Position numbers and translations under genes: made by a program
Assembly (NCBI RefSeq): GCF_000463155.2
Contig: NZ_AWFZ01000016.1
Coordinates: 811 to 32,810, forward strand
Reading direction: 5' to 3'
Source: Siccibacter turicensis LMG 23730
Lineage (GTDB): Bacteria; Pseudomonadota; Gammaproteobacteria; Enterobacterales; Enterobacteriaceae
DNA length: 32,000 bases
The notes under the pieces: model-generated
The model's input: the letters and a program-made list of their open reading frames with translations, nothing else
The model's database searches: none
Told to the model about the DNA's origin: nothing
Shown: in pieces, positions 6,233 through 30,472 of the stretch
How positions within the stretch are numbered: the stretch's first letter is position 1
Layout of the letters: the number at the start of each line of letters is the position of its first letter

Positions 6233-6639
6233 AAAAACAGGATGATAATTACAGCACACAGACAGTACGGGACGGGGTCACCCTGACCGCCCGCCTTCAG
6301 TCATGGGGGTTACTGCTCCTGGGCATGCTGGCTGCCGTGGTGGCGATGGTGGCAGTCAGCATTATCACCGTTCACCTCAGTACGCCGCGGATCGTGTCTT
6401 TCGATATGAAAGGGACGATGGATATGTTTATCCAGCAAACCCTGCAGCAGAAGCTGACTGAGGACCAGTCGAAAGTCCTGATGCAGCGCTTTAATACCGC
6501 GCTGACGGACAGCCTGACGGCATGGCAGGCCGAGCATAACGTGGTCATTCTGGTAGCTCCGGCGGTCGTCAGCACCCAGCCGGATATCACGGGCGATATC
6601 CGCAGTGACATTGCGCAGAAGATGAAGGGGGGCCAGTGA
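6229..6639 (+). CDS. trbI: TrbI, inner-membrane pilus retraction/assembly accessory protein
   Basis: ATG 6229 overlaps the traC stop (ATGA); an alternative in-frame ATG lies at 6214. It has a single TM. FNTALTDSLTAWQAEHNVVILVAPAVV...PDITGDIRSDIAQKM parallels F TrbI (FNTALEASLQAWQQKHHAVILVSPAVV..PDITREIQQDIAHRM). Confidence 0.88.
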   Translation: MKKQDDNYSTQTVRDGVTLTARLQSWGLLLLGMLAAVVAMVAVSIITVHLSTPRIVSFDMKGTMDMFIQQTLQQKLTEDQSKVLMQRFNTALTDSLTAWQAEHNVVILVAPAVVSTQPDITGDIRSDIAQKMKGGQ

Positions 6640-7271
6640 ACACACCCCTGAAACTTGCAACGCTGGCGGCCGTTCTGCTGTCGGCCAGTGTCAGCGCGAA
6701 AGACCTCGGTACCTGGGGGAATCTGTTTGAGCCGGCAGAACAGGACATGCTGGCTTTCATTCAGGGACGTCTGAAATCGATGGAGCAAAGCGGAGAGCTG
6801 GGGCGGCTGCAGAGCGAAGCCATCGAGCGTGTGAAGCGTAACGCGGTGCGACCGCAGCCGGTGGCTGGCATCAGCCCTGCCGTGAAGTACCGCACGTTCA
6901 GTTATGACCCCACCTTCATCGTCAACGAAACCATTACCGATATGAAAGGAAACATCATCGCCCGCAAGGGCGATCGGGTTAATCCATTCGATAAGGTGCC
7001 GTTCAGTCAGACCCTCTATTTTATCGACGGTGATAACCGCGATGAACTGACGTGGATGAAGCAGCAGCTGAGCGCGACGACGAATTTCAAGGTCATTCTG
7101 GTGAAGGGCAACATCAAGGACACCAGTGATGCCCTCGATGAGCGTATCTACTTCGACCAGGCCGGTGTGCTGACCACGAAGTTTGGTATCGAACATACCC
7201 CCGCGCGCGTGAGTCGTGACGATCGCGTCCTGAAAATTGAGGAAATTCCTGCCACAGGAGCAAAAAAATGA
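6636..7271 (+). CDS. traW: Periplasmic pilus-assembly protein TraW
   Basis: GTG start overlaps the trbI stop (GTGA). The 211 aa product has a signal peptide (F TraW is about 210 aa). Position between trbI and traU-side genes fits. The family call rests mainly on size, synteny and general resemblance. Confidence 0.85.
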   Translation: MNTPLKLATLAAVLLSASVSAKDLGTWGNLFEPAEQDMLAFIQGRLKSMEQSGELGRLQSEAIERVKRNAVRPQPVAGISPAVKYRTFSYDPTFIVNETITDMKGNIIARKGDRVNPFDKVPFSQTLYFIDGDNRDELTWMKQQLSATTNFKVILVKGNIKDTSDALDERIYFDQAGVLTTKFGIEHTPARVSRDDRVLKIEEIPATGAKK

Positions 7272-7564
7272 ACAGTGCTGAAATGAACACCACGTCGTCA
7301 CGCAGCTGCGGCTTCAGAAAGGAAAGCATGAGCAGCCGCGGGCACCGGCTCAAAGACCTGTATCCGGAGATGGAGTCATGGGGCGCCAGTTTTCTGGCTC
7401 GCGTCTGGCTCGCTTTCACCCGGACGAACGGGCGAAAGGCTGATGTGCCTGAGCAGCGCGACGAAGCATTCCCGGAATACGTGGTGCAGACGCTGATGGA
7501 CATGGCCGCAGCACGCGATCCGAAATGCAGACCGGTGATGCTCGTCAGCAGTGTGGGGGAATGA
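7268..7564 (+). CDS. Hypothetical small soluble protein, paralogue 1 of a tandem pair (98 aa; alternative start ATG 7328 gives 78 aa)
   Basis: ATG overlaps the traW stop (ATGA). The internal ATG 7328 has AAGGA upstream. It shares LxDxYPE..W........W...........DxP..RD..F...........M with the next ORF (see findings). No TM or signal peptide. Confidence 0.6.
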   Translation: MNSAEMNTTSSRSCGFRKESMSSRGHRLKDLYPEMESWGASFLARVWLAFTRTNGRKADVPEQRDEAFPEYVVQTLMDMAAARDPKCRPVMLVSSVGE

Positions 7565-7567
7565 GTT

Positions 7568-7792
7568 ATGCAAAAAGAGCCTCAAACGCAGCGTGTCAGG
7601 GAAAAGCTGCTGCGTGATATCTACCCTGAACTGGCCGCCTGGGATGGCGACTGTGTTCTGGCTGCATGGTCAGTTTATCGCGGTCTGAGCCGGAAAAGTG
7701 ACGATCTGCCGGCGGCGCGTGATGACGGATTCATACGCTTTATAACGGGCAGCATGCAGGCCATGCTGGGCGAGGTAGCAGCATGGAGCTGA
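7568..7792 (+). CDS. Hypothetical small soluble protein, paralogue 2 of the tandem pair (74 aa)
   Basis: ATG lies 3 nt after the previous stop. In my hand alignment, 13 of 52 positions are identical to the preceding ORF without gaps. Confidence 0.6.
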   Translation: MQKEPQTQRVREKLLRDIYPELAAWDGDCVLAAWSVYRGLSRKSDDLPAARDDGFIRFITGSMQAMLGEVAAWS

Positions 7793-7893
7793 TCCACCTC
7801 TCTCTTTGTCTGGTTTCTCCCGGCCTGTTCCTTACGCTTGCCATGACGCTGTTTCTGGCCATGCTGCTGGTTGCCCTCGGCACGGCTGAATGA
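7783..7893 (+). CDS. Possible 36 aa hydrophobic micro-protein (MELIHLSLCLVSPGLFLTLAMTLFLAMLLVALGTAE)
   Basis: It is not in the ORF track because it is too short. ATG 7783 is preceded by GAGG at 7772-7775 (7 nt spacing) and overlaps the end of the 74 aa ORF by 10 nt. It would form a single predicted TM helix. Confidence 0.35.
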   Translation: MELIHLSLCLVSPGLFLTLAMTLFLAMLLVALGTAE

Positions 7894-7996
7894 CCAGCCG
7901 CCCCGTCTCTCAGGATGTTCGGTGCTCACTCTGCTGCGCGCCGCCTCAGCCTGACAGCCGGACCGGCTCCCAATAACACCTTAGGTTCAACCTCCT

Positions 7997-8206
7997 GTGA
8001 AAAAAGACCCTGAACGCAAAAGGGCGCAGAAGAAGAACATTACCTCCACGCGCCTCGATGACGAGGCTGTCGCCCAGATGACCCGGATACTGAGTGACAA
8101 CCCGCTCTACACGCGTGCCCTTGTTCTTCGCGGCGCTATCGAGGCGCTGTACCGCCTTCCAAAGGACCAGCGCGAGGCGATTATCCGCGCGGCTGCCGAA
8201 CACTGA
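7997..8206 (+). CDS. Putative ribbon-helix-helix (CopG/Arc/MetJ-like) DNA-binding protein, 69 aa
   Basis: GTG start with only a weak SD (AGGT, 10 nt upstream). A basic N-terminus (KKDPERKRAQKK) is followed by a short beta-strand-like NITSTRLDDE and two helices (AVAQMTRIL..., ALVLRGAIEALYRL). It follows about 100 nt of non-coding DNA inside the operon. Confidence 0.5.
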   Translation: MKKDPERKRAQKKNITSTRLDDEAVAQMTRILSDNPLYTRALVLRGAIEALYRLPKDQREAIIRAAAEH

Positions 8207-8275
8207 TATCTGTTTTCCCCTTCTTCGCCCTCCCGCCTGCCGGTGGCCGTGGCATTCCCTTATAAGGACTCAAAC

Positions 8276-8617
8276 ATGACACAACCTGAGATTTTCAGGC
8301 GGGTGACGGTTGCCCGCGACGCGAACGGATACTGGACTCACCCGGACTATTTCACGCCCGCCGAAGACCGGGAATATGGCAGGCCGGGTGAGTTTGAGGC
8401 CTGGCTGAAGGAACACAATCTGCACTACGCCATGAGCTGGATGGAGAACGAAGCCATCGGGGCGGTGAAAACCGCGTATGAGCGTGGCGAGGACAATATC
8501 AGCGGCTGGATACCGGTGATGCCTGCCGGCGACGGCTGGTTTATCGGCTCTATTCATGACACGGAGGACGGTCCGGTGTGCATCTGGCTGAAGGAGTTGC
8601 CATGCGCCGCACGCTGA
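8276..8617 (+). CDS. Hypothetical acidic Trp-rich protein, 113 aa (the ORF track extends it to GTG 8243)
   Basis: ATG 8276 has AAGGA 7 nt upstream. My hand count gives about 19 D/E versus about 10 K/R, and 6 Trp. No TM. The 3' end overlaps the traU start by 16 nt. I recognise no family. Confidence 0.6.
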   Translation: MTQPEIFRRVTVARDANGYWTHPDYFTPAEDREYGRPGEFEAWLKEHNLHYAMSWMENEAIGAVKTAYERGEDNISGWIPVMPAGDGWFIGSIHDTEDGPVCIWLKELPCAAR

Positions 8618-9603
8618 GGCTACTTATCCTGCTCGGCGCCATGCTGATCCCGATGATGGTCACCAGCTCACCGGCGCGCGCCGCCGATGCGGGCGATGGC
8701 CGTTGGGTTAACCCCATCTCAGACGTGTGCTGGAAATGTCTCTTTCCGATGACACTTGGCAACATTCAGCTGGCGTCAGGGCCGCAAAAAGATACCAACA
8801 ACCCCTCAATGCCGATTCAAATCTGCCCGATGGGCGTGCTCTACCGCCTCGGGCTGGCCATCGGCTTCTGGGAGCCGATGGCGATGGTGGATGTGACTCG
8901 CGAGCCGGGCGTGATGGTGAACATGGGGGGCTTCAAAATCGACTTGGGCCGGACCGGAACCGGCACGGCTGGTCAGAGTGACCGCCCGGCAGCCGGCACG
9001 TTCTATCACGTTCACTGGTACAAGTACCCGCTGATTTTCTGGCTCAACATCATCACAAGCCTCGGCTGTCTGCAGACCGGTGATATGGATATTGCCTATC
9101 TGTCGGAGGTGGACCCGTTGTGGAATGACAGCACGCTCTCAATGCTCATCAACCCGGAAGCGGCCCTGTTCGGCAACCTGATAGCCCAGGCGGCCTGTGC
9201 TGCTGATGCGGCGGCCAGTTCTGCTGGTCTGCCGCTGTCTCCACTGTTCTGGTGTGCCGGCTCACAGGGGTCGTATTACCCGTTGACCGGGTATACCAGT
9301 GGCGAGTTTTCTCCGCTGGAGTCCTCACTGCTGGTCAGTGAGCGCATGGCATTCAAGATGCACCGCGAGGGACTGGTCTGGAACTCTGTAGGTGCGGACA
9401 CCGCCGTGTGTCACCAGTATCCATCCCCGATCATCCCTAAAGAGCGCTGGCGATACCAGATGGTCAATATGTATCCGGAAACGAATAACTGCCATCCATT
9501 CGGTGCCAGTACCCAGATGTGGGGTACCGGGCACAACTCTCCGCAGTCGAAGAAAAACTTCGGTTACCTGTTCTGGCGCAAAAGAAACTGTGTATTCCTG
9601 TGA
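8602..9603 (+). CDS. traU: Periplasmic pilus-assembly/DNA-transfer protein TraU
   Basis: ATG 8602 has AAGGAG at 8591-8596; the track start at 8578 is less likely. Near-colinear match to recalled F TraU (VNPI.D.CW.C.FP, NPSMPIQICP, FYHVHWYKYPL..WLNIITSLGCL..GDMDIAYLSE.DP, LLVSERMAFK.HR, YPSPI.PKERWRYQMVNMYP, KKNFGYL.WRKRNCVFL). Confidence 0.97.
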   Translation: MRRTLRLLILLGAMLIPMMVTSSPARAADAGDGRWVNPISDVCWKCLFPMTLGNIQLASGPQKDTNNPSMPIQICPMGVLYRLGLAIGFWEPMAMVDVTREPGVMVNMGGFKIDLGRTGTGTAGQSDRPAAGTFYHVHWYKYPLIFWLNIITSLGCLQTGDMDIAYLSEVDPLWNDSTLSMLINPEAALFGNLIAQAACAADAAASSAGLPLSPLFWCAGSQGSYYPLTGYTSGEFSPLESSLLVSERMAFKMHREGLVWNSVGADTAVCHQYPSPIIPKERWRYQMVNMYPETNNCHPFGASTQMWGTGHNSPQSKKNFGYLFWRKRNCVFL

Positions 9604-12864: not shown

Positions 12865-13311
12865 ATGCCGTCACAGAGTAAATATCGTTCCGTTGTTTTC
12901 GTGGCGAAAGGGGCCCTTTTCGCGTTCGTCACCGTGCCAGCCCGTATGCTGTTCCTGCTTTTGCTTTTCCTGTTTGTAAGCGGCTCGCCCGCCGGCGAGT
13001 TTATTGCCACTGCCCGGGAGCTTACAGGAGGTGCACCGCCAGACCAGGTCTGGGTGTGCGGCACCAACGTTGAACAGTTCACAGAGGATCGTCCTGAAAG
13101 TGTTTTAACAAAACGACCCTGTCTCCCGGTGCAGGTGGATGCTGAGAGGTTCGCGGCAGACGTTGATCACGAAATCATCCGGGGCTGGCTGTATTTAGGC
13201 GTATTCAGTTTTCTTGTCTACTTTCTGCGCTTTTCACCTGACATCTCCGGGCCGCTCCAGAGCATACTGGCTCGTATTAAATTTGCTTTCTCAAGGAGTA
13301 TGAAATCATGA
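12865..13311 (+). CDS. Hypothetical membrane protein, 148 aa (trbA/artA position)
   Basis: Two hydrophobic segments (FAFVTVPARMLFLLLLFLFV; GWLYLGVFSFLVYFL). It fills the gap between traF and the next ORF, and its stop overlaps the next ATG (ATGA). I recognise no family. Confidence 0.5.
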   Translation: MPSQSKYRSVVFVAKGALFAFVTVPARMLFLLLLFLFVSGSPAGEFIATARELTGGAPPDQVWVCGTNVEQFTEDRPESVLTKRPCLPVQVDAERFAADVDHEIIRGWLYLGVFSFLVYFLRFSPDISGPLQSILARIKFAFSRSMKS

Positions 13312-18815: not shown

Positions 18816-19553
18816 ATGAAAGTGGGAATGTTAACAAAGTCATTATATGCGCCGATCCTGTTATTATATTTTTGCGCGCCAATATATCATGATGTAATGG
18901 CATTTTCTGCAAACTATGATTTTACAGATTGGGTGATGTTAGGAGTCATATATGGCATTGGAACAATGTTTTCATTCCCATTACTTTATCTTCTATTCAA
19001 ACTAGAGCCGAAGCTTACTTCTTGCCGCGGTACAGGCATGCGTGCTGGTGCATGCTTGTTACTACTAATAGGGTGCATTGCTTTGTTTTGGAATGTCTCG
19101 GGGTTATTCTATGCCTCATTGCTAGTCGCAATTCTTTGCTCATTTTTTATTATGTTCTTGTGGCGTAGTGATCTAAATGCGAACGCTAAGATTTACAAAG
19201 AAAATCATACAGGCGCTATGTATGCAGTGAAGAATGGCAAGAGCAGGCTTTTAAATGTAAATGAAGTTACGCATGTTACTGCTCTGGTCGATGCTGGTAA
19301 ATTGCACATACATGAGTATGTCGGTGATTTCAACGCAGGTTCGTCTATCGCATCATCGCCGACGTTTGATAACGCTTCATTACATTCAGGTGTTAATTTA
19401 GACTCATCCTCAACTAACTATGTTAACCCCTCAACAGGATTACCTATGTCTGGGGGAATGTCAGGGTTAGACATTTCAGGTAACACTTGGGGTACAAGCT
19501 TCAACGACCCCGCTAATAATGGAACCTCTTATGACCCTAACCGTGGTTACTGA
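18816..19553 (+). CDS. Putative entry-exclusion inner-membrane protein (traS position), 245 aa with an extra soluble C-terminal domain
   Basis: Located between traG and traT. It has about 4 TM segments in the first 120 aa, then a 125 aa hydrophilic Asn/Ser/Gly-rich tail. It is strongly AT-rich: the 60-nt line starting at 18841 is 22/60 G+C. TraS proteins are not sequence-conserved, so the call is positional. Confidence 0.6.
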   Translation: MKVGMLTKSLYAPILLLYFCAPIYHDVMAFSANYDFTDWVMLGVIYGIGTMFSFPLLYLLFKLEPKLTSCRGTGMRAGACLLLLIGCIALFWNVSGLFYASLLVAILCSFFIMFLWRSDLNANAKIYKENHTGAMYAVKNGKSRLLNVNEVTHVTALVDAGKLHIHEYVGDFNAGSSIASSPTFDNASLHSGVNLDSSSTNYVNPSTGLPMSGGMSGLDISGNTWGTSFNDPANNGTSYDPNRGY

Positions 19554-26000: not shown

Positions 26001-28513
26001 GCGAAGTCAGCGCAATGGTGAAAAACGGTGACCTGATCACCGTTCCCAACCGCGGCGAGCCGCTGCTGGTCTCGCGGGCAACCTGGGAAATGGAGAAAGC
26101 CATTCTGCGTACCATTGAGGCTGGAAAAGACACTCAGGAGCCGCTGATGGAGCAGGTTGACCCGAAACTGCTTAATGGCCTGACGTCAGGACAGAAACAG
26201 TCAGCGATGCTCGTACTCGGCAGCCGGGATCAGTTCACCGGTATTCAGGGTTACGCCGGGGTGGGTAAAACCACGCAGGTGGGGGCGGTTAAGGCGGCAA
26301 TCGAGACCCTGCCGGCAGATGTCCGGCCGGAACTGCGCGGGCTGGCGCCGACACACCAGGCGGTTAAGGAGCTGAAGGACGTGGGCATGGTGGCCCAGAC
26401 GGCAAAATCGTTCATCGTTGAGCATGATCAGCTGGTCGCGGCCGGCCAGAAACCTGATTACCGTAACCAGGTGTTCCTGATTGATGAATCCTCAATGCTG
26501 GGTAACCAGGACACCGCGGCCGCGTATCAGGCGATACAGGCCGGCGGAGGACGCGCGGTCTCGATGGGCGATATCGATCAGTTTGAGTCAGTGGACGCCG
26601 GTGCACCCTTTAAGCTCATGCAGGAGCGCAGCCCGATGGACGTGGCCATCATGAAACAGATCGTGCGACAGAAGGACAGTAACCTGAAAGACGCCGTCCA
26701 CGACATTATCGATAACCGTATCGATGCCGCCTTGCGGCGCATTGAAAGCCAGCCGACAGACAAAGTGGACCGGATCAGTGATGCTCCGGTCCCCCCTTCC
26801 GGCCTGACAGAAACCGGCGATCCGGTAAACGACATCGTGGCGGACTGGGCGGGCCGGACACCGGCGGCGCGCGCCCGGACCATTATCATCACCCAGCTTA
26901 ACAAGGACCGGCAGGCGGTTAACCAGGGTATTTATCACAGCCTGGCAAAAGAGGGCTCGCTGGGACGGGAGGAAGTGACGGTGCCGGTACTGGAGAAAAT
27001 CAGCCGCACCCGTCACGAGTTCAACAAAACCGCGCCCTGGCAGAAAGGTATGGTGGTGAAACGGGGTGAGCGGTATCAGGATGTGATTGCCGTTGACCGG
27101 AACGGCTCACTCATCACGGTTCGGGATGAGAATGGCGATCTGGGGATGTATTCCCCCCGAGAGTTGCTGACGAACGATGTGCAGCTTTTCACCCGCGCGA
27201 AGATACCGGTGCGTACCGGGACAGAGCTGCGTTTCACTGCCACTGATCGTGAGCAGGGGCAGACCGCTAATCAGCGGTACACCGTAGATACCATCAGGGA
27301 AAACGGCGAAATGGTGCTGCGGGGCGCTGCCGGCACAAAGGTCATCAACCCGAATGAAGTCCGGGCCGAGCAGCATATCGATTATGCCTGGGCCGTGACC
27401 GGTTACGGCGCGCAGGGGGCCAGTAGTGATTATGTCATCTCACTCGAAGGTACCGATGGTGGCCGCCGCAATTTGGCCACGCAGCGGGCGTTTTATATCT
27501 CCACATCGCGTGCCAAAGAGCATGTGCAAATCTATACCGATGGCAGGGAAAAATGGATACAGCGGGTTAAAAGCGGGGAGTACGAAGACAAGACCGCGCA
27601 TGACGCTCTGAAGCCGGAAACCGAACGTAAACAGGCGAAGGCAATCTGGGCGATGGGCCAGCCGGTGAGTAAAACCGCCATTGGCAGGGCATGGTCCCGT
27701 CATCAGGACATGGGCAGCAGCAACCTGACTGCCCGTATCATCCCGGCTACCCGTCGTTTTCCGGAGCCATCACTGGCGCTGCCGTTGTATGACAACAATG
27801 GTAAAAGTGCCGGTCTGGCGCTGGTTTCTCTCGTGGCCAGTAATGAAGGCCGGCTGACGCAGGGGGATGTGCGTATGGTGGCCACACAGGGCGCGCGTGC
27901 AGCTGTACTGCAGCGCAGCCAGACCGGTCATACACATGTCGTGAAAGACATGGCTGAAGCACTGAGAGTCGCACGTGACCATCCCAGAGACGGAGTGGTG
28001 TGGCAGACCAGTGAGCAGGATGTCTCCGGACAGCTGATGAAAATTACTAAGGGTACAGATCAGCTGGCAGAACAGCGCCGGGCACAGAGCATTATTCAGG
28101 AGGTACCAGAAATCCGCTTGCCGGCAGACGTGCAAAAGGATGCCGAGAACGCGGTGGCACAAAAAGCTCAGGAGGCGCTGCAGCAGGAGCGTGAGAGGGA
28201 ACAAACCGACGCCAGCCGGATTATTCGTGACGCCCTGTCACTGCCGGATGCAGCCAGAAGCCGCGAAGAGGGACTTAACGCCGCGGCTGAGACGGTATCC
28301 CGTGGCATGGCTGACCGGACGCCGGAAAACATCAGGCTTCCGGATGACCCGGAGATCACGCGTAACCAGAGTGAGCTACAACGCGCTAGACAGGTGCAGC
28401 AAGACCTTTCCACACAGCAGGAGAATATCCGCCTGCCGGACACCGGCGAACGCGGGCGCGCCATCGAGCGCGATGAACCCACCCCCGTACAACATATCCA
28501 GAAAGAACGCTAA
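23075..28513 (+). CDS. traI: Relaxase/DNA helicase I TraI (MOB-F)
   Basis: ATGA overlap with the traD stop. 1812 aa. The N-terminus MMSVAPVASAGTAAGYYSNADNYYF carries the catalytic Tyr pair, and the metal triad is HDTSRNLDPQLHTHLLIAN. Helicase Walker A is GYAGVGKTT and Walker B is VFLIDESSM. The protein is colinear with recalled F TraI throughout (HIDYAWA.TGYGAQGAS, GRKYP-like RRFPEP..ALP..D.NGKSAG). Confidence 0.98.
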   Translation: MMSVAPVASAGTAAGYYSNADNYYFLGSLQSLWIGEGARELGLEGNVRGDDLTAVLEGRLPDGSRLGKEMNGIHVHRPGHDLTFSAPKSVSILALIGGDKDMLEAHDHAVRVAAGYVEKLISARDTKDGVTSIIQTGKMVAAAYTHDTSRNLDPQLHTHLLIANMTELNGKWKALATDYIHDAGFIETVMKMQVTLGKIYRGALRERVEALGHDVETVGKHGMWEIKGVPEDVREEYSSRGREIQGAIGAEATLRSRDVAAKDTRRAKVDPSRLRLMERWQTQMKEKGFDLKGYMESVSPREDRETRYPEPVPPAPVEKNGPGITRENENIPEVAARPERAPDTPAAPRSDREVPEPSPAMPGDHNRHDLTPSHDKQPEPAPRSVPEPRTPVADKPAPALRQEVLDAVKMAVSQLSDSKTRFTWGELMLTTTEFSDKLPDMKEVKQAIDASLKEGLIIPLDSEKGVFTSRIHLLDELSIQALSQEHIRAGSVVSFTRPELYAPASLEVVEQDSLVLMNAPGGVAGIRGLTSQIAGIAIGHGREVSVLASSAERATSLAKDETLRERLISRQHVVSGEFSLKPQSTLIIEGAERLGLKETLVLLGEARVKDAQLVFLDSAGRQANGNAMSVLESAGVPRSRRTEPSPGLETDVVSIPDKRNRYEALANRFAELSAGSEPVTAVVIGQREQKQLTGLIRDALQNAGQLERDGVTVEARSPVWLDGKTRRMPGSYRSGQVLEDRSDARETRHYVIDRVHEDTRMLSLIDGDGVVVRQKISSLTADWRLYNSENISVAEGEKLLAVAGDKAAGLKAKDRLQVTGVSDRGIEVVRDGKPLVLPADRPLYITHGYVAAPGGRDNDNGTVLAALNSRDITARTMNSLAQSGQRAEVFTAEAQDRAEARLQRMTDLSSPVQLVRRLSGQEDVSQAVGTLQQGVKSDAALAVHRAIADQRSVVFSELKLVEAAQGFHPDMVAVGREVSAMVKNGDLITVPNRGEPLLVSRATWEMEKAILRTIEAGKDTQEPLMEQVDPKLLNGLTSGQKQSAMLVLGSRDQFTGIQGYAGVGKTTQVGAVKAAIETLPADVRPELRGLAPTHQAVKELKDVGMVAQTAKSFIVEHDQLVAAGQKPDYRNQVFLIDESSMLGNQDTAAAYQAIQAGGGRAVSMGDIDQFESVDAGAPFKLMQERSPMDVAIMKQIVRQKDSNLKDAVHDIIDNRIDAALRRIESQPTDKVDRISDAPVPPSGLTETGDPVNDIVADWAGRTPAARARTIIITQLNKDRQAVNQGIYHSLAKEGSLGREEVTVPVLEKISRTRHEFNKTAPWQKGMVVKRGERYQDVIAVDRNGSLITVRDENGDLGMYSPRELLTNDVQLFTRAKIPVRTGTELRFTATDREQGQTANQRYTVDTIRENGEMVLRGAAGTKVINPNEVRAEQHIDYAWAVTGYGAQGASSDYVISLEGTDGGRRNLATQRAFYISTSRAKEHVQIYTDGREKWIQRVKSGEYEDKTAHDALKPETERKQAKAIWAMGQPVSKTAIGRAWSRHQDMGSSNLTARIIPATRRFPEPSLALPLYDNNGKSAGLALVSLVASNEGRLTQGDVRMVATQGARAAVLQRSQTGHTHVVKDMAEALRVARDHPRDGVVWQTSEQDVSGQLMKITKGTDQLAEQRRAQSIIQEVPEIRLPADVQKDAENAVAQKAQEALQQEREREQTDASRIIRDALSLPDAARSREEGLNAAAETVSRGMADRTPENIRLPDDPEITRNQSELQRARQVQQDLSTQQENIRLPDTGERGRAIERDEPTPVQHIQKER

Positions 28514-28529
28514 CCACAGGAACCTGAAC

Positions 28530-29312
28530 ATGCTGATTAAAACAGTTATTGCCACAGTAGTTACAACATACATTGGGTTTTCTTCCATTGCCCTCGCATC
28601 GACACCGGCGCCGGTATTCACGCCTGAGCAGGAAGCCCGGATTGGTGAGCTGGCCGAAGCGTACCTGCTGGAACACCCGGAAATACTGGTGCAGGTCAGC
28701 CAGAAGCTGCAGGCGCAGCAGACCGCCCGGCAGCAGATGGGGTTTGCCCTGAACGTCATGGAACATCAGGAGGCATTGCTCAATGACCCTGACACGCCGG
28801 TAACAGGTCCGAAGGAGGCAAAGGTGGCAGTAATCGAATTCTTTGATTACCAGTGTGTCTTCTGCAGCCGACTGGCACCGGCGATGGAAGACGTGATGAA
28901 AGCCAGCCCCGACACACGTTTTGTGTTCAAGGAATGGCCCATTTTTGCGCAGCGCTGGGAAAACTCACAAAAAGCAGCCGAGCGCGGTGTGGCTATCTGG
29001 AAAGAAAAAGGCGCGGAGGCTTACCTGACATATCACAGCGGCATCTACCACACCGGACATAGCGAAGGCGAGCTGACAGAACTGGACATTAAAACCGCCA
29101 GCGCAGCTGCCGGGTACACCCCTGTTAAGCAACTGGTGATGACTTCTGCTCTGGATAAGACGAACGCGCTGGCTCAGGCTCTTGGCCTGACCGGTACGCC
29201 AGGTCTGATTGTAATGCCGGTAAAAAATGCCACCCCGGAAAAAATTACGGTGTTCCCTGGCCTTGCTACGGCCGAACAGATCCTGTCTGCGATTGATAAA
29301 GCCAGCAATTAA
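28530..29312 (+). CDS. Periplasmic DsbA-family thiol:disulfide oxidoreductase with an N-terminal helical extension (ScsC/Com1-like architecture)
   Basis: ATG 28530 lies 17 nt after the traI stop; the upstream 130 codons of the track ORF overlap traI out of frame. It has a signal peptide. The thioredoxin motif is EFFDYQCVFCSRL (CVFC at 28854-28865). The cis-Pro region GTPGLIV lies near the C-terminus. Confidence 0.85.
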   Translation: MLIKTVIATVVTTYIGFSSIALASTPAPVFTPEQEARIGELAEAYLLEHPEILVQVSQKLQAQQTARQQMGFALNVMEHQEALLNDPDTPVTGPKEAKVAVIEFFDYQCVFCSRLAPAMEDVMKASPDTRFVFKEWPIFAQRWENSQKAAERGVAIWKEKGAEAYLTYHSGIYHTGHSEGELTELDIKTASAAAGYTPVKQLVMTSALDKTNALAQALGLTGTPGLIVMPVKNATPEKITVFPGLATAEQILSAIDKASN

Positions 29313-29475: not shown

Positions 29476-29940
29476 TCAGGACTTAAACAGCCGGCCATCA
29501 AAATCAAAGGGCACTGTGACTGCGTTACTCACTACCTTTCTGAGACCTGGATAATGAGGATTTATAAGGAAGTTGTGTTCAACAGGTAATATAGCGCTGG
29601 GAACCGCGAGCGCGAGTGCATTACCCTCCTTGATCCATATATCACCTATTGTTCGGACGTTATCAGGGGAGATTGGTGCATCCCAGTTTCGTGGCAAGGC
29701 TTCAATATCTAATACTTCAATAAGAGAGTCCGGGACGTCAATCGTTAGTAAGGTATATTTACCTAATCCGGGCGCCTCATGCATATGTACCAGCACTTCC
29801 AGAACTGCCAGAGATGCGCTACCAGTAGCGTATACCATCGCAGTACCTTCATGATTCCACCGTCCGCCATAATCGCGAGCGCCACTGCCGGTCCACGCCT
29901 CGGAGGCATAGCGTGTTTTTGTTAAGCGAAACAGCTTCAC
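29476..29940 (-). CDS. RES-domain toxin (ParT/MbcT family, NAD+-targeting) of a type II toxin-antitoxin pair
   Basis: 154 aa with a GTG start. The R-E-S signature is spaced correctly (GGRWN; SASLAVLEVLVH; AVPSAILP). GTGA overlap with the upstream antitoxin stop. Confidence 0.88.
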   Translation of the reverse strand: MKLFRLTKTRYASEAWTGSGARDYGGRWNHEGTAMVYATGSASLAVLEVLVHMHEAPGLGKYTLLTIDVPDSLIEVLDIEALPRNWDAPISPDNVRTIGDIWIKEGNALALAVPSAILPVEHNFLINPHYPGLRKVVSNAVTVPFDFDGRLFKS

Positions 29941-30380
29941 GAAAAGACGCCATGCTCGAGCCGGTTTATAAGTTTCAGCACTTCGAACGCACCAGCTTCA
30001 GAAGAAAGTAAATCAGCAGGTTTTTCCCATCCAAGTCCTCGAACAGGCTCATTCAGCCATTTCAGCGCGGCACCCTTGTCACCTTCAAACATCTCTACAG
30101 CCCGATCCATAACCCGTATCAGACGTACAAGACGTTCACTTTGTTCAGCAGTAAAACGGGCTTTGCTACTACGATTGAACGTTGTGCCAGGTATACCGGT
30201 CATATGACGTAATTCTGTTTTAGAAATGTTGGTCCATCTGGTGATTCGTTCAGCAACATCACCTTCAAGCCCTTCTTCAATCTGAGCTAGAAGTCCGAGG
30301 CCGTCACCACTGCTGAGGCCAGCGAACTGCCAGAGACGTTGTTGTTGCTTAGAAGCCAGAGTAGGGGAGTAGACTTTCAT
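29937..30380 (-). CDS. Xre-like/DUF2384 antitoxin (ParS/MbcA family) cognate to the RES toxin
   Basis: Start is ATG 30380 with GGAGG 5 nt upstream; the track start at 30392 overlaps that SD. The HTH-like N-half (ELRHMTGIPGTTFNR) and C-terminal block (A.KWLNEP...LG...P.DLL.S..G...V...L.R.E.G) are typical of antitoxins paired with RES toxins. Confidence 0.85.
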   Translation of the reverse strand: MKVYSPTLASKQQQRLWQFAGLSSGDGLGLLAQIEEGLEGDVAERITRWTNISKTELRHMTGIPGTTFNRSSKARFTAEQSERLVRLIRVMDRAVEMFEGDKGAALKWLNEPVRGLGWEKPADLLSSEAGAFEVLKLINRLEHGVFS

Positions 30381-30388
30381 AAATACCT

Positions 30389-30472
30389 CCATTTGGTCAT
30401 AATTTTACGTCCAAATGGTACAAAAAGAAAGGTTGCTACTATAACTTTGCGGTTACTACCATAGTCAAAGTT
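30389..30472 (-). promoter_or_regulatory. Putative promoter and two operator-like palindromes of the Xre-RES operon
   Basis: Read on the - strand, TTGACT (30468-30463) is followed by 19 nt and then TATAGT (30443-30438). The inverted repeat AACTTTG (30443-30449) / CAAAGTT (30466-30472) brackets the spacer. A perfect 8-bp inverted repeat CCATTTGG (30389-30396) / CCAAATGG (30411-30418) overlaps the SD. Confidence 0.35.

Follow-up and report, generated by a model that had tools for sequence, protein, structure and literature searches.

The sequence analysed in this study is a stretch of 32,000 nucleotides from Siccibacter turicensis LMG 23730 (contig NZ_AWFZ01000016.1, positions 811 to 32,810), hereafter called the window. 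The subject is a block of five open reading frames (ORF1 to ORF5) located between the conjugation genes traW and traU, together with a conserved hairpin in the non-coding gap of this block (Table 1). The window carries a complete F-type transfer (tra) region, encoding TraE, K, B, V, C, TrbI and TraW upstream of the block and TraU, TrbC, TraN, TraF, TrbB, TraH, TraG, a TraS-like protein, TraT, TraD and TraI downstream of it, with strong matches to NCBIfam and Pfam models for TrbI and TraW on one side and for TraU and TrbC on the other. With a probability of about 0.6, the block is an old accessory module in a locally trimmed form, the module belonging to a single clade of F-type tra regions, that of Enterobacter, Citrobacter, Kosakonia, Leclercia and Siccibacter-like plasmids.

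The five ORFs are present at the junction as set out in a preliminary description of this DNA, and both of the overlaps that it reported were found in the sequence: the start of ORF1 overlaps the stop of traW in an ATGA (7268-7271), and traU starts 16 nt inside ORF5 (8602-8617). ORF4 and ORF5 are separated by 69 nt. In the F paradigm nothing lies between traW and traU, and relative to F the junction is indeed non-canonical, as had been claimed, but the arrangement is typical of the plasmid lineage to which the window belongs. L-numbers denote the comparison loci in related plasmids and contigs; L001 is Kosakonia pKrDSM107547, L003 is pKpQIL-531, L004 is a Shigella phage-plasmid, L005 stands for the Serratia marcescens 43-kb F-type plasmids, and L015 is a Pantoea F-type plasmid.

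Coding status and expression of the junction genes

The five genes of the block are real and under purifying selection. Compared with L006, which is 87% identical, the ratio of nonsynonymous to synonymous substitution rates (dN/dS) was 0.16 for ORF1, 0.29 for ORF2, 0.33 for ORF3, and 0.10 for both ORF4 and ORF5, with values of 0.10 and 0.04 for the flanking TraW and TraU. The two off-frames of ORF3 gave 1.4 and 2.1 in the same comparison, and therefore all five ORFs behave as coding. The start of ORF5 was placed at the ATG at 8276, which has AAGGA upstream and at which the homologues and the gene calls of the relatives begin; a GTG at 8243 is not the start. The G+C content of the block (0.57-0.60) and that of its third codon positions (GC3, 0.57-0.74) lie inside the range of the backbone, in agreement with the preliminary description. 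Its view that the block is not a recent foreign insertion also held, as the same families occur at the junction even where the TraW of the plasmid has no more than 67-77% identity.

Scanning of the coding strand inside the block revealed neither a terminator-like nor a promoter-like site, and no sigma-70-like site was present in 6500-9000. It follows that the block is probably co-expressed with the pilus-assembly genes.

The synonymous substitution rate (dS) against L006 was not uniform along the junction. ORF4 and ORF5 (window 7997-8617 against L006 6001-6614) had dS values of 0.13 and 0.26, and those of traW, ORF1 to ORF3 and traU were far higher (0.5-0.8). Identity to L006 rises from 70-78% to more than 90% exactly at the hairpin. 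The low dS of ORF4 and ORF5 suggests either a recent exchange of this segment or an extra constraint upon it. The whole tra region is mosaic relative to L006, with identities of 70-98%.

Distribution and conservation of the junction

The window itself is not in PLSDB, where the best match is 78% identical. Contigs that are about 87% identical hold the same five ORFs, and the ORF4 protein common to these contigs has an NCBI record under Siccibacter turicensis. Counted by tblastn, the ORF1 family was present in 159 PLSDB plasmids at 270 places, usually with two copies per plasmid, and 212 plasmids carried the ORF4 family. By genus, the two families had the same counts (Enterobacter 114, Citrobacter 19, Kosakonia 8, Escherichia 6, and others), with the exception of 52 Serratia plasmids carrying an ORF4 relative. 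Relatives of ORF1/2, ORF4 and ORF5 share the traW-traU junction in about 160 PLSDB plasmids of Enterobacter, Citrobacter, Kosakonia and other genera.

The usual order in these relatives is traW, an ORF of 120-130 aa, an ORF1-like gene, a protein of 335-381 aa with an N-terminal transmembrane segment, ORF4, ORF5 and traU. The ORF of about 120-130 aa is optional, one or two ORF1-family proteins may be encoded, and the hairpin, placed between the large protein and ORF4, is found in one branch only. The order of the four families is kept across plasmids whose TraW has diverged to the extent given above. The close relatives L007-L010 carry additional genes for proteins of 124 aa and 113 aa, and ORF5 is missing from L053. 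L001 has, 360 nt downstream of the genuine traW, a partial copy of the 3' end of this gene (71% identical over TraW residues 163-204), which constitutes a recombination scar at the same junction.

Every one of the junction relatives in Kosakonia and Enterobacter plasmids is annotated as a hypothetical protein. The block genes are in public records under that label and their arrangement is ordinary within the lineage. The preliminary description had allowed that the ORFs might prove to be annotated Tra/Trb accessory genes conserved at this junction in a described plasmid lineage. The conservation at the junction in a plasmid lineage was observed, but the annotation extends only to hypothetical proteins, and no describing paper was found; a literature search likewise returned no paper on the traW-traU junction genes of this lineage, on the hairpin motif or on ISShdy1. 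The earlier statement that no ORF can be assigned to a Tra/Trb family was borne out, as none matched any Tra/Trb model of NCBIfam or Pfam at E<=1. Searches of the five ORFs against Pfam, NCBIfam, PHROGs and PADLOC gave a single match, that of ORF5 to PHROG 1372, and the other genes found at the junction in relatives did not obtain a function from searches either. None of the ORFs matched the PADLOC defence models or the Pfam anti-restriction models (such as ArdA, ArdC or KlcA), which is compatible with an anti-defence function of an undescribed kind.

The block might also be neutral or selfish cargo in a permissive junction, riding on tra transcription without any contribution to transfer. The variable gene content (the 124-aa and 113-aa extras of L007-L010, the lack of ORF5 in L053 and the deletion of the large membrane protein in the window), the recombination scar in Kosakonia, the mosaic identity to L006 and the lack of a known function for any cargo gene would all fit such a history. 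However, the dN/dS of ORF4 and ORF5 equals that of TraW, the four families keep their order where TraW is strongly diverged, and the ORF1 and ORF4 families agree in their genus counts, which makes mere cargo quite unlikely.

Properties of the encoded proteins

ORF1 and ORF2 are paralogous (blastp E 1e-8, 25% identity), as had been proposed. Their family, referred to as the ORF1 family, is small, with only 13 representative clusters among 1.84 billion proteins, and has been seen only within F-type tra operons, at the traW-traU junction. Conserved motifs of the family are LYPE..W and RDE.FP. The C-terminus of ORF1 has diverged from the family. ORF2 is the more canonical member and retains the conserved tryptophan of the family beside its C-terminus, ending in ...AAWS where most members end in W-[R/K/Q]. 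The AlphaFold2 model of ORF1 is a three-helix bundle with a core at residues 21-83 and a predicted local distance difference test score (pLDDT) of about 85. Comparison of this model with the PDB gave no fold match; the best hit was AcrIE3 at E 5.6, a likeness that was discarded as meaningless. A profile of the family searched against the PDB also returned nothing real. The structure checks on AlphaFold models advocated in the preliminary description were thus run for ORF1 and ORF5, and neither model matches the PDB. No signal peptide or transmembrane segment was predicted in ORF1, ORF2, ORF4 or ORF5.

ORF3 is strongly hydrophobic (grand average of hydropathy +1.76). In its slot, the relatives L001, L002, L014, L050, L052 and L053 carry a protein of about 340-380 aa with an N-terminal transmembrane segment, and a large membrane protein was present at the junction in every relative examined. 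The start of ORF3 overlaps the upstream ORF by 10 nt (ATGGAGCTGA), and the same overlap was observed at the start of the large gene in L002 (ATGGCGCTAA) and L014. Sequence similarity between ORF3 and the large protein was not significant. Because of the equivalent position and the same 10-nt start overlap, ORF3 is probably the membrane-anchor stub of a protein of about 340 aa.

ORF4 is basic (isoelectric point, pI, of 10), and its family was located within an F-type tra operon in every context examined. The Serratia relative lies immediately upstream of traD and overlaps its start, which means that the tra gene to which the family is coupled varies with the lineage. In L005 the gene that precedes the ORF4 relative encodes a hypothetical protein of 176 aa. 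The alignment of the family displays a strand-like (I/T)S.VR.D segment, a helix, an NPLY..S turn and a VLRGA.LAL helix, of which ORF4 itself has the strand-like segment as ITSTRLD and the second helix as VLRGA(I/L)LAL. The preliminary description had identified ORF4 as a ribbon-helix-helix (RHH) protein. The conserved pattern is compatible with that fold, but no match to the Pfam RHH models at E<=1 was obtained for any of 40 members of the family, and a comparison by hhalign with nine known RHH sequences was not significant (P=0.041, probability 1.3%). In that comparison, residues 15-41 were in register with the strand, helix and turn of Arc, and also with CopG and NikR. The ORF4 profile found nothing real in the PDB: the only RHH-like entry was MazE4 (E 0.26), and matches to protein A repeats were spurious. 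ORF4 is tentatively considered, at somewhat less than even odds, to bind DNA, as a small basic protein that is particular to F-type tra operons and would act on plasmid DNA in processing or regulation.

ORF5 is acidic and rich in tryptophan (pI 4.75, 6 Trp), as initially described. It matched PHROG 1372, a family without an assigned function, at E 5.8e-39 (residues 5-108 on profile positions 56-156). The ORF5 family was found in 2042 plasmids and in 82 phages with hosts ranging from Escherichia to Burkholderia and Vibrio; four Trp, His94 and Cys102 are among its 14 invariant residues. The AlphaFold2 model (pLDDT 80) is of the alpha/beta type; it gave no match in the PDB and only uncharacterised phage proteins in BFVD, and the ORF5 profile found nothing real in the PDB. 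The only domain fused to ORF5 relatives was related to crAss001_48, itself uncharacterised. In pKpQIL-531, an ORF5 relative lies outside tra, between a DUF2726 gene and a phospholipase D gene and beside repA. In the Shigella phage-plasmid, a relative is found among early genes of the ead/Ea22-like, DUF551 and DUF4752 types. The most likely role of ORF5, though still a doubtful one, would be to bind a host factor, for instance in anti-defence or host takeover.

The position of a small basic, putatively DNA-binding protein directly upstream of a protein of about 110 aa, both highly conserved, recalls a type II toxin-antitoxin pair, in which an RHH antitoxin would be followed by a toxin and the plasmid thereby stabilised. 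However, the two families are distributed differently: relatives of ORF5 are present in 2042 plasmids and 82 phages, those of ORF4 in only 212 plasmids. Serratia and L053 have ORF4 but not ORF5, and the reverse holds for pKpQIL and the phage-plasmid. In addition, the 69 nt between the two genes leave them uncoupled, and no toxin or antitoxin family was matched. As the families do not co-occur, the pair was rejected, its probability being extremely low.

A further explanation is that the block encodes dedicated accessories of the donor envelope machinery, for pilus assembly, mating-pair stabilisation or exclusion, in the manner of the small trb genes of F and unrelated to defence. This would account for the restriction of the ORF1 and ORF4 families to F-type tra operons, at fixed positions among the periplasmic pilus-assembly genes or before traD, for the membrane protein of about 340 aa at the junction of every relative examined, for the membrane anchoring of that protein and of ORF3, and for the translational coupling to traW and traU. 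Against it, the other four proteins have neither signal peptide nor transmembrane segment and the basic nature of ORF4 is in line with DNA binding; relatives of ORF5 abound in phages and in places other than tra operons; and the membrane protein has been lost in the window while the flanking transfer genes remained intact and highly conserved. Envelope accessories are rather unlikely on this balance.

A conserved hairpin in the intergenic gap

The gap before ORF4 had been described as about 100 nt of non-coding DNA. It is non-coding, but it contains a conserved hairpin, in which a stem of about 17 bp, variable with compensating changes, closes a nearly invariant apex of 33 nt (plus strand, TGTTCGGTGCTCACTCTGCTGCGCGCCGCCTCA). 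The hairpin is, as far as was checked, undescribed, and it is the most original result of this analysis. A core of 33-45 nt was found at about 90% identity in 308 plasmids, 248 of which are conjugative, and was annotated in none of them. The core was also present in 32 species-representative genome stretches, and the hairpin was found in 102 of the 5426 complete genomes of E. coli. Of 50,697 phage records, only three, all of a single phage (Sodalis phiSG1), contained it. In F-like plasmids of E. coli the hairpin lies in the distal leading region, co-oriented with DNA methylase and antirestriction genes, and one chromosomal copy is carried by a conjugative element, adjoining a T4 coupling protein and ArdC. 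In the Pantoea F-type plasmid it is situated just after the equivalent of the DsbA gene, which is not so in the window.

Thirty-nine distinct copies (those of the window, L012 and L020 and 36 others) were aligned without gaps. Paired bases occupied 86.5% of the cells, against 34-48% in slid controls; 20 of the 27 pairs had changed on both sides, and none of 500 shuffles reached the observed score. This covariation proves the hairpin. A covariance model (R1) recovered the window copy at E 3e-19, with a single copy in the window and one copy per locus elsewhere. The same search found no hairpin in the Kosakonia or Serratia loci searched, and a hairpin would not fit into the mere 27 nt that precede ORF4 in L050 and L053.

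The mismatches in the stem were not symmetrical, with 43 A.C against 11 G.T. At the inner pair 41-47, the counts were 23 G-C, 10 A-T, 6 A.C and 0 G.T, so that wobble intermediates exist on the minus strand only. The minus strand also folded 3-5 kcal/mol better in all three copies compared, and it is the template strand of the tra genes in the window. In the F paradigm, the template strand of tra is the transferred strand (T-strand). We infer that the functional single strand of the hairpin would be the minus strand, the transferred strand. The role that is most likely, at about even odds, is that of a single-stranded DNA (ssDNA) element of the transferred strand, serving for priming, as a roadblock or for the binding of a protein.

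Several other identities were considered for the hairpin. No Rfam 15 match to it was obtained in the window at E<=1, nor at the gathering score in 11 loci with copies, and a search of L020 at E<=10 returned only noise. An intrinsic terminator was rejected, as the terminator scan did not report the hairpin and the flanks of the 39 copies have no consistent T-run on either strand; a sigma-70 promoter was rejected given the lack of a promoter-like site in the interval scanned above. The stem is GC-rich, differs freely between copies and has no -35/-10 boxes. The core motif was absent, on either strand, from the Frpo/ssi sequences in the supplement of PMC11541004, and with no shared sequence and no -35/-10 hexamers in the stem, an Frpo/ssi element was rejected. 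An IS110 bridge or seek RNA is unlikely, as the variable part is the paired stem rather than a loop and most copies have no transposase nearby. The likeness of the core to the F nic site (TGT..GGTGCT) is short and on the wrong strand. A 28-aa frame at 7890-7976 (DVRCSLCCAPPQP; VRCSLCCAPPQ) was dismissed as a micro-ORF, as the frame is interrupted by a stop in L007 and lacks a start codon in L012. All differences between this frame and an E. coli copy are synonymous, an apparent coding signal that arises because the apex of the hairpin is conserved. A dedicated site for ORF4 was rejected, as the hairpin and ORF4 each occur without the other.

Two independent hairpin copies lie close to transposase genes of the IS110 insertion sequence (IS) family (ISShdy1-like), at a distance of 287-316 nt where the gene is upstream and of about 80 nt where it is downstream. 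Elements of this family may favour the hairpin as a target, as IS1111 does REP and attC.

The gap might instead hold an internal promoter and operator through which ORF4 autoregulates an ORF4-ORF5-traU sub-operon, corresponding to the regulatory sub-circuit mentioned in the preliminary description. It is the sole sizeable non-coding gap of the block, lies just upstream of ORF4 and holds a conserved structured element, at which the identity to L006 jumps. However, no sigma-70-like site is present, several lineages have only the 27-nt gap and no hairpin before ORF4, and the hairpin occurs in many places without ORF4. Such a circuit is very unlikely.

Proposed role of the junction genes and of the hairpin

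Under the accessory-module reading, the lineage of the window would have two copies of the ORF1 family and would have lost the body of the large protein, keeping the 36-aa ORF3. The products of the block would be non-structural accessory factors of transfer or establishment, and not parts of the type IV secretion system (T4SS), with ORF4 acting on DNA, ORF5 on a host factor, and ORF1 and ORF2 as partners of the lost membrane protein. The hairpin would be a separate element, associated with conjugative elements and acting as ssDNA.

A number of points weigh against this picture. No family, fold or literature match from all the searches run gives any block product a function. The module is dispensable in parts, with the large protein lost here, ORF5 absent from L053 and the extra genes variable, which also fits neutral cargo. 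Co-transcription was deduced from the sequence, and ORF4 lacks a canonical Shine-Dalgarno sequence in the lineage of the window. The hairpin is absent from Kosakonia, Serratia and L050-L053, all of which still carry ORF4, and no ORF4 homologue was found near hairpins elsewhere. The assignment of the T-strand would depend on the F paradigm and on the co-orientation with leading-region genes, and not on this plasmid.

A bolder proposal is that the hairpin represents a new class of cis-acting ssDNA element and the module a donor-expressed establishment kit, and this is a long shot. If it were true, the hairpin would be read on the transferred strand of plasmids and of integrative and conjugative elements as a priming site for the complementary strand, a programmed roadblock or a docking site; proteins of the ORF5 and ORF1 types, made together with the T4SS, would act in or on the recipient against host factors; and expression in the donor would get round the problem of timing faced by genes that are the last to enter.

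The accessory module is of wider relevance, as an F-like plasmid clade that spreads resistance in Enterobacter and its relatives carries uncharacterised conserved proteins inside its transfer operon. Two of the families (ORF1/2 and ORF4) have been seen only in F-type tra operons, and that of ORF5 extends to over 2000 plasmids, to lambdoid phages and to phages of Burkholderia and Pseudomonas. Once understood, the function of the module could point to accessory steps of conjugation or to kinds of host manipulation that are new. Recent work has shown that plasmid establishment is controlled by ssDNA elements such as Frpo. If the hairpin belongs to a second class of ssDNA element unrelated to Frpo, this would be testable with existing single-cell conjugation assays.

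Other features of the window

A second variable slot lies between traF and trbB, where a 148-aa ORF without a family match has a lower GC3 (0.56). At about 12.9-13.3 kb, L006 has 0% identity to the window, and a 72-aa ORF is present instead of the 148-aa ORF. The TraS-like entry-exclusion gene has a G+C content of 0.41 and a GC3 of 0.38, far below the backbone, and a weak match to Pfam TraS in its C-terminus only; this gene looks exchanged. After traI, a DsbA/ScsC-like protein with a thioredoxin fold is encoded, with the domains in the second half of the ORF, followed by a pair formed by a RES toxin and an Xre-family antitoxin.

Table 1. Coordinates of the features discussed, in the window and in the comparison loci
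Feature	Locus	Position	Strand	Remarks
traW (5' flank)	Window	6636-7271	+	NCBIfam TraW, E 1e-90
ORF1	Window	7268-7564	+	98 aa
ORF2	Window	7568-7792	+	74 aa
ORF3	Window	7783-7893	+	36 aa, hydrophobic micro-ORF
Non-coding gap	Window	7894-7996		103 nt, holds hairpin
Conserved hairpin	Window	7898-7966	-	69 nt
Hairpin apex	Window	7916-7948
ORF4	Window	7997-8206	+	69 aa, GTG start
ORF5	Window	8276-8617	+	113 aa, ATG start
traU (3' flank)	Window	8602-9603	+	NCBIfam TraU, E 4e-183
Second variable slot	Window	12865-13311
TraS-like gene	Window	18816-19553
DsbA/ScsC-like ORF	Window	28140-29312
RES toxin and Xre-family antitoxin	Window	29476-30392	-
Hairpin copy	L012	2983-3051		In the alignment of 39
Hairpin copy	L020	5340-5408		In the alignment of 39
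IS110-family transposase gene	L012	2311-2686		Near hairpin
IS110-family transposase gene	L049	5698-6714		Near hairpin
IS110-family transposase gene	L013	3145-3990		Near hairpin
Partial copy of traW 3' end	L001	4955-5080
ORF5 relative	L003	2160-2468
ORF5 relative	L004	4995-5306
ORF4 relative	L005	4995-5204		Before traD

Comparison with known systems

The tra operon of F holds small non-essential trb and art genes (trbA, artA, trbE, trbJ, trbF and others), which are co-transcribed and often translationally coupled. The block resembles these in consisting of short ORFs amid essential pilus-assembly genes that vary between lineages and mostly have no assigned function. It differs from them in having no sequence relation to the Trb/Tra models, a conserved internal order and, in ORF5, a family that is common in phages.

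ORF4 shares with RHH proteins such as TraY, the N-domain of TraM, TrwA, CopG and Arc its small size, its basic character and a possible strand-helix-turn-helix pattern, but differs from them in the failure of all 40 family members to match the RHH models of Pfam and in the empty profile search of the PDB.

Anti-defence islands with Frpo/ssi ssDNA promoters have been described in plasmid leading regions (Samuel et al. 2024, PMC11541004; Couturier et al. 2023, PMC9849209). As in these islands, small uncharacterised and often acidic proteins are encoded here, the T-strand would be the template, and long hairpins would act on ssDNA. The same hairpin family is, moreover, present in F-like leading regions beside a DNA methylase and an antirestriction gene. 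Unlike these islands, the block is located in the tra operon, which is transferred last, and unlike Frpo/ssi the hairpin has a varying stem, a conserved apex and no -35/-10 boxes.

With the STAXI and EFASI elements of Rfam, which are structured motifs of mobile elements that may act as ssDNA or RNA, the hairpin has in common that it is a conserved, covarying structure in the intergenic DNA of enterobacterial plasmids and islands. In L029 and L042, STAXI and EFASI are located a few kb or less from copies of the hairpin. The sequence and structure of the hairpin are different, and no Rfam model matched it at the thresholds tried.

REP/BIME and integron attC hairpins are known targets of IS1111/IS110-family elements. 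The hairpin is, like them, a dispersed extragenic palindrome, and two independent copies adjoin IS110-family transposase genes. Whereas the stem or the base is conserved in REP and attC, conservation in the hairpin lies in the apex, and its stem varies freely. The hairpin also differs from them in being almost confined to conjugative elements, usually once per replicon.

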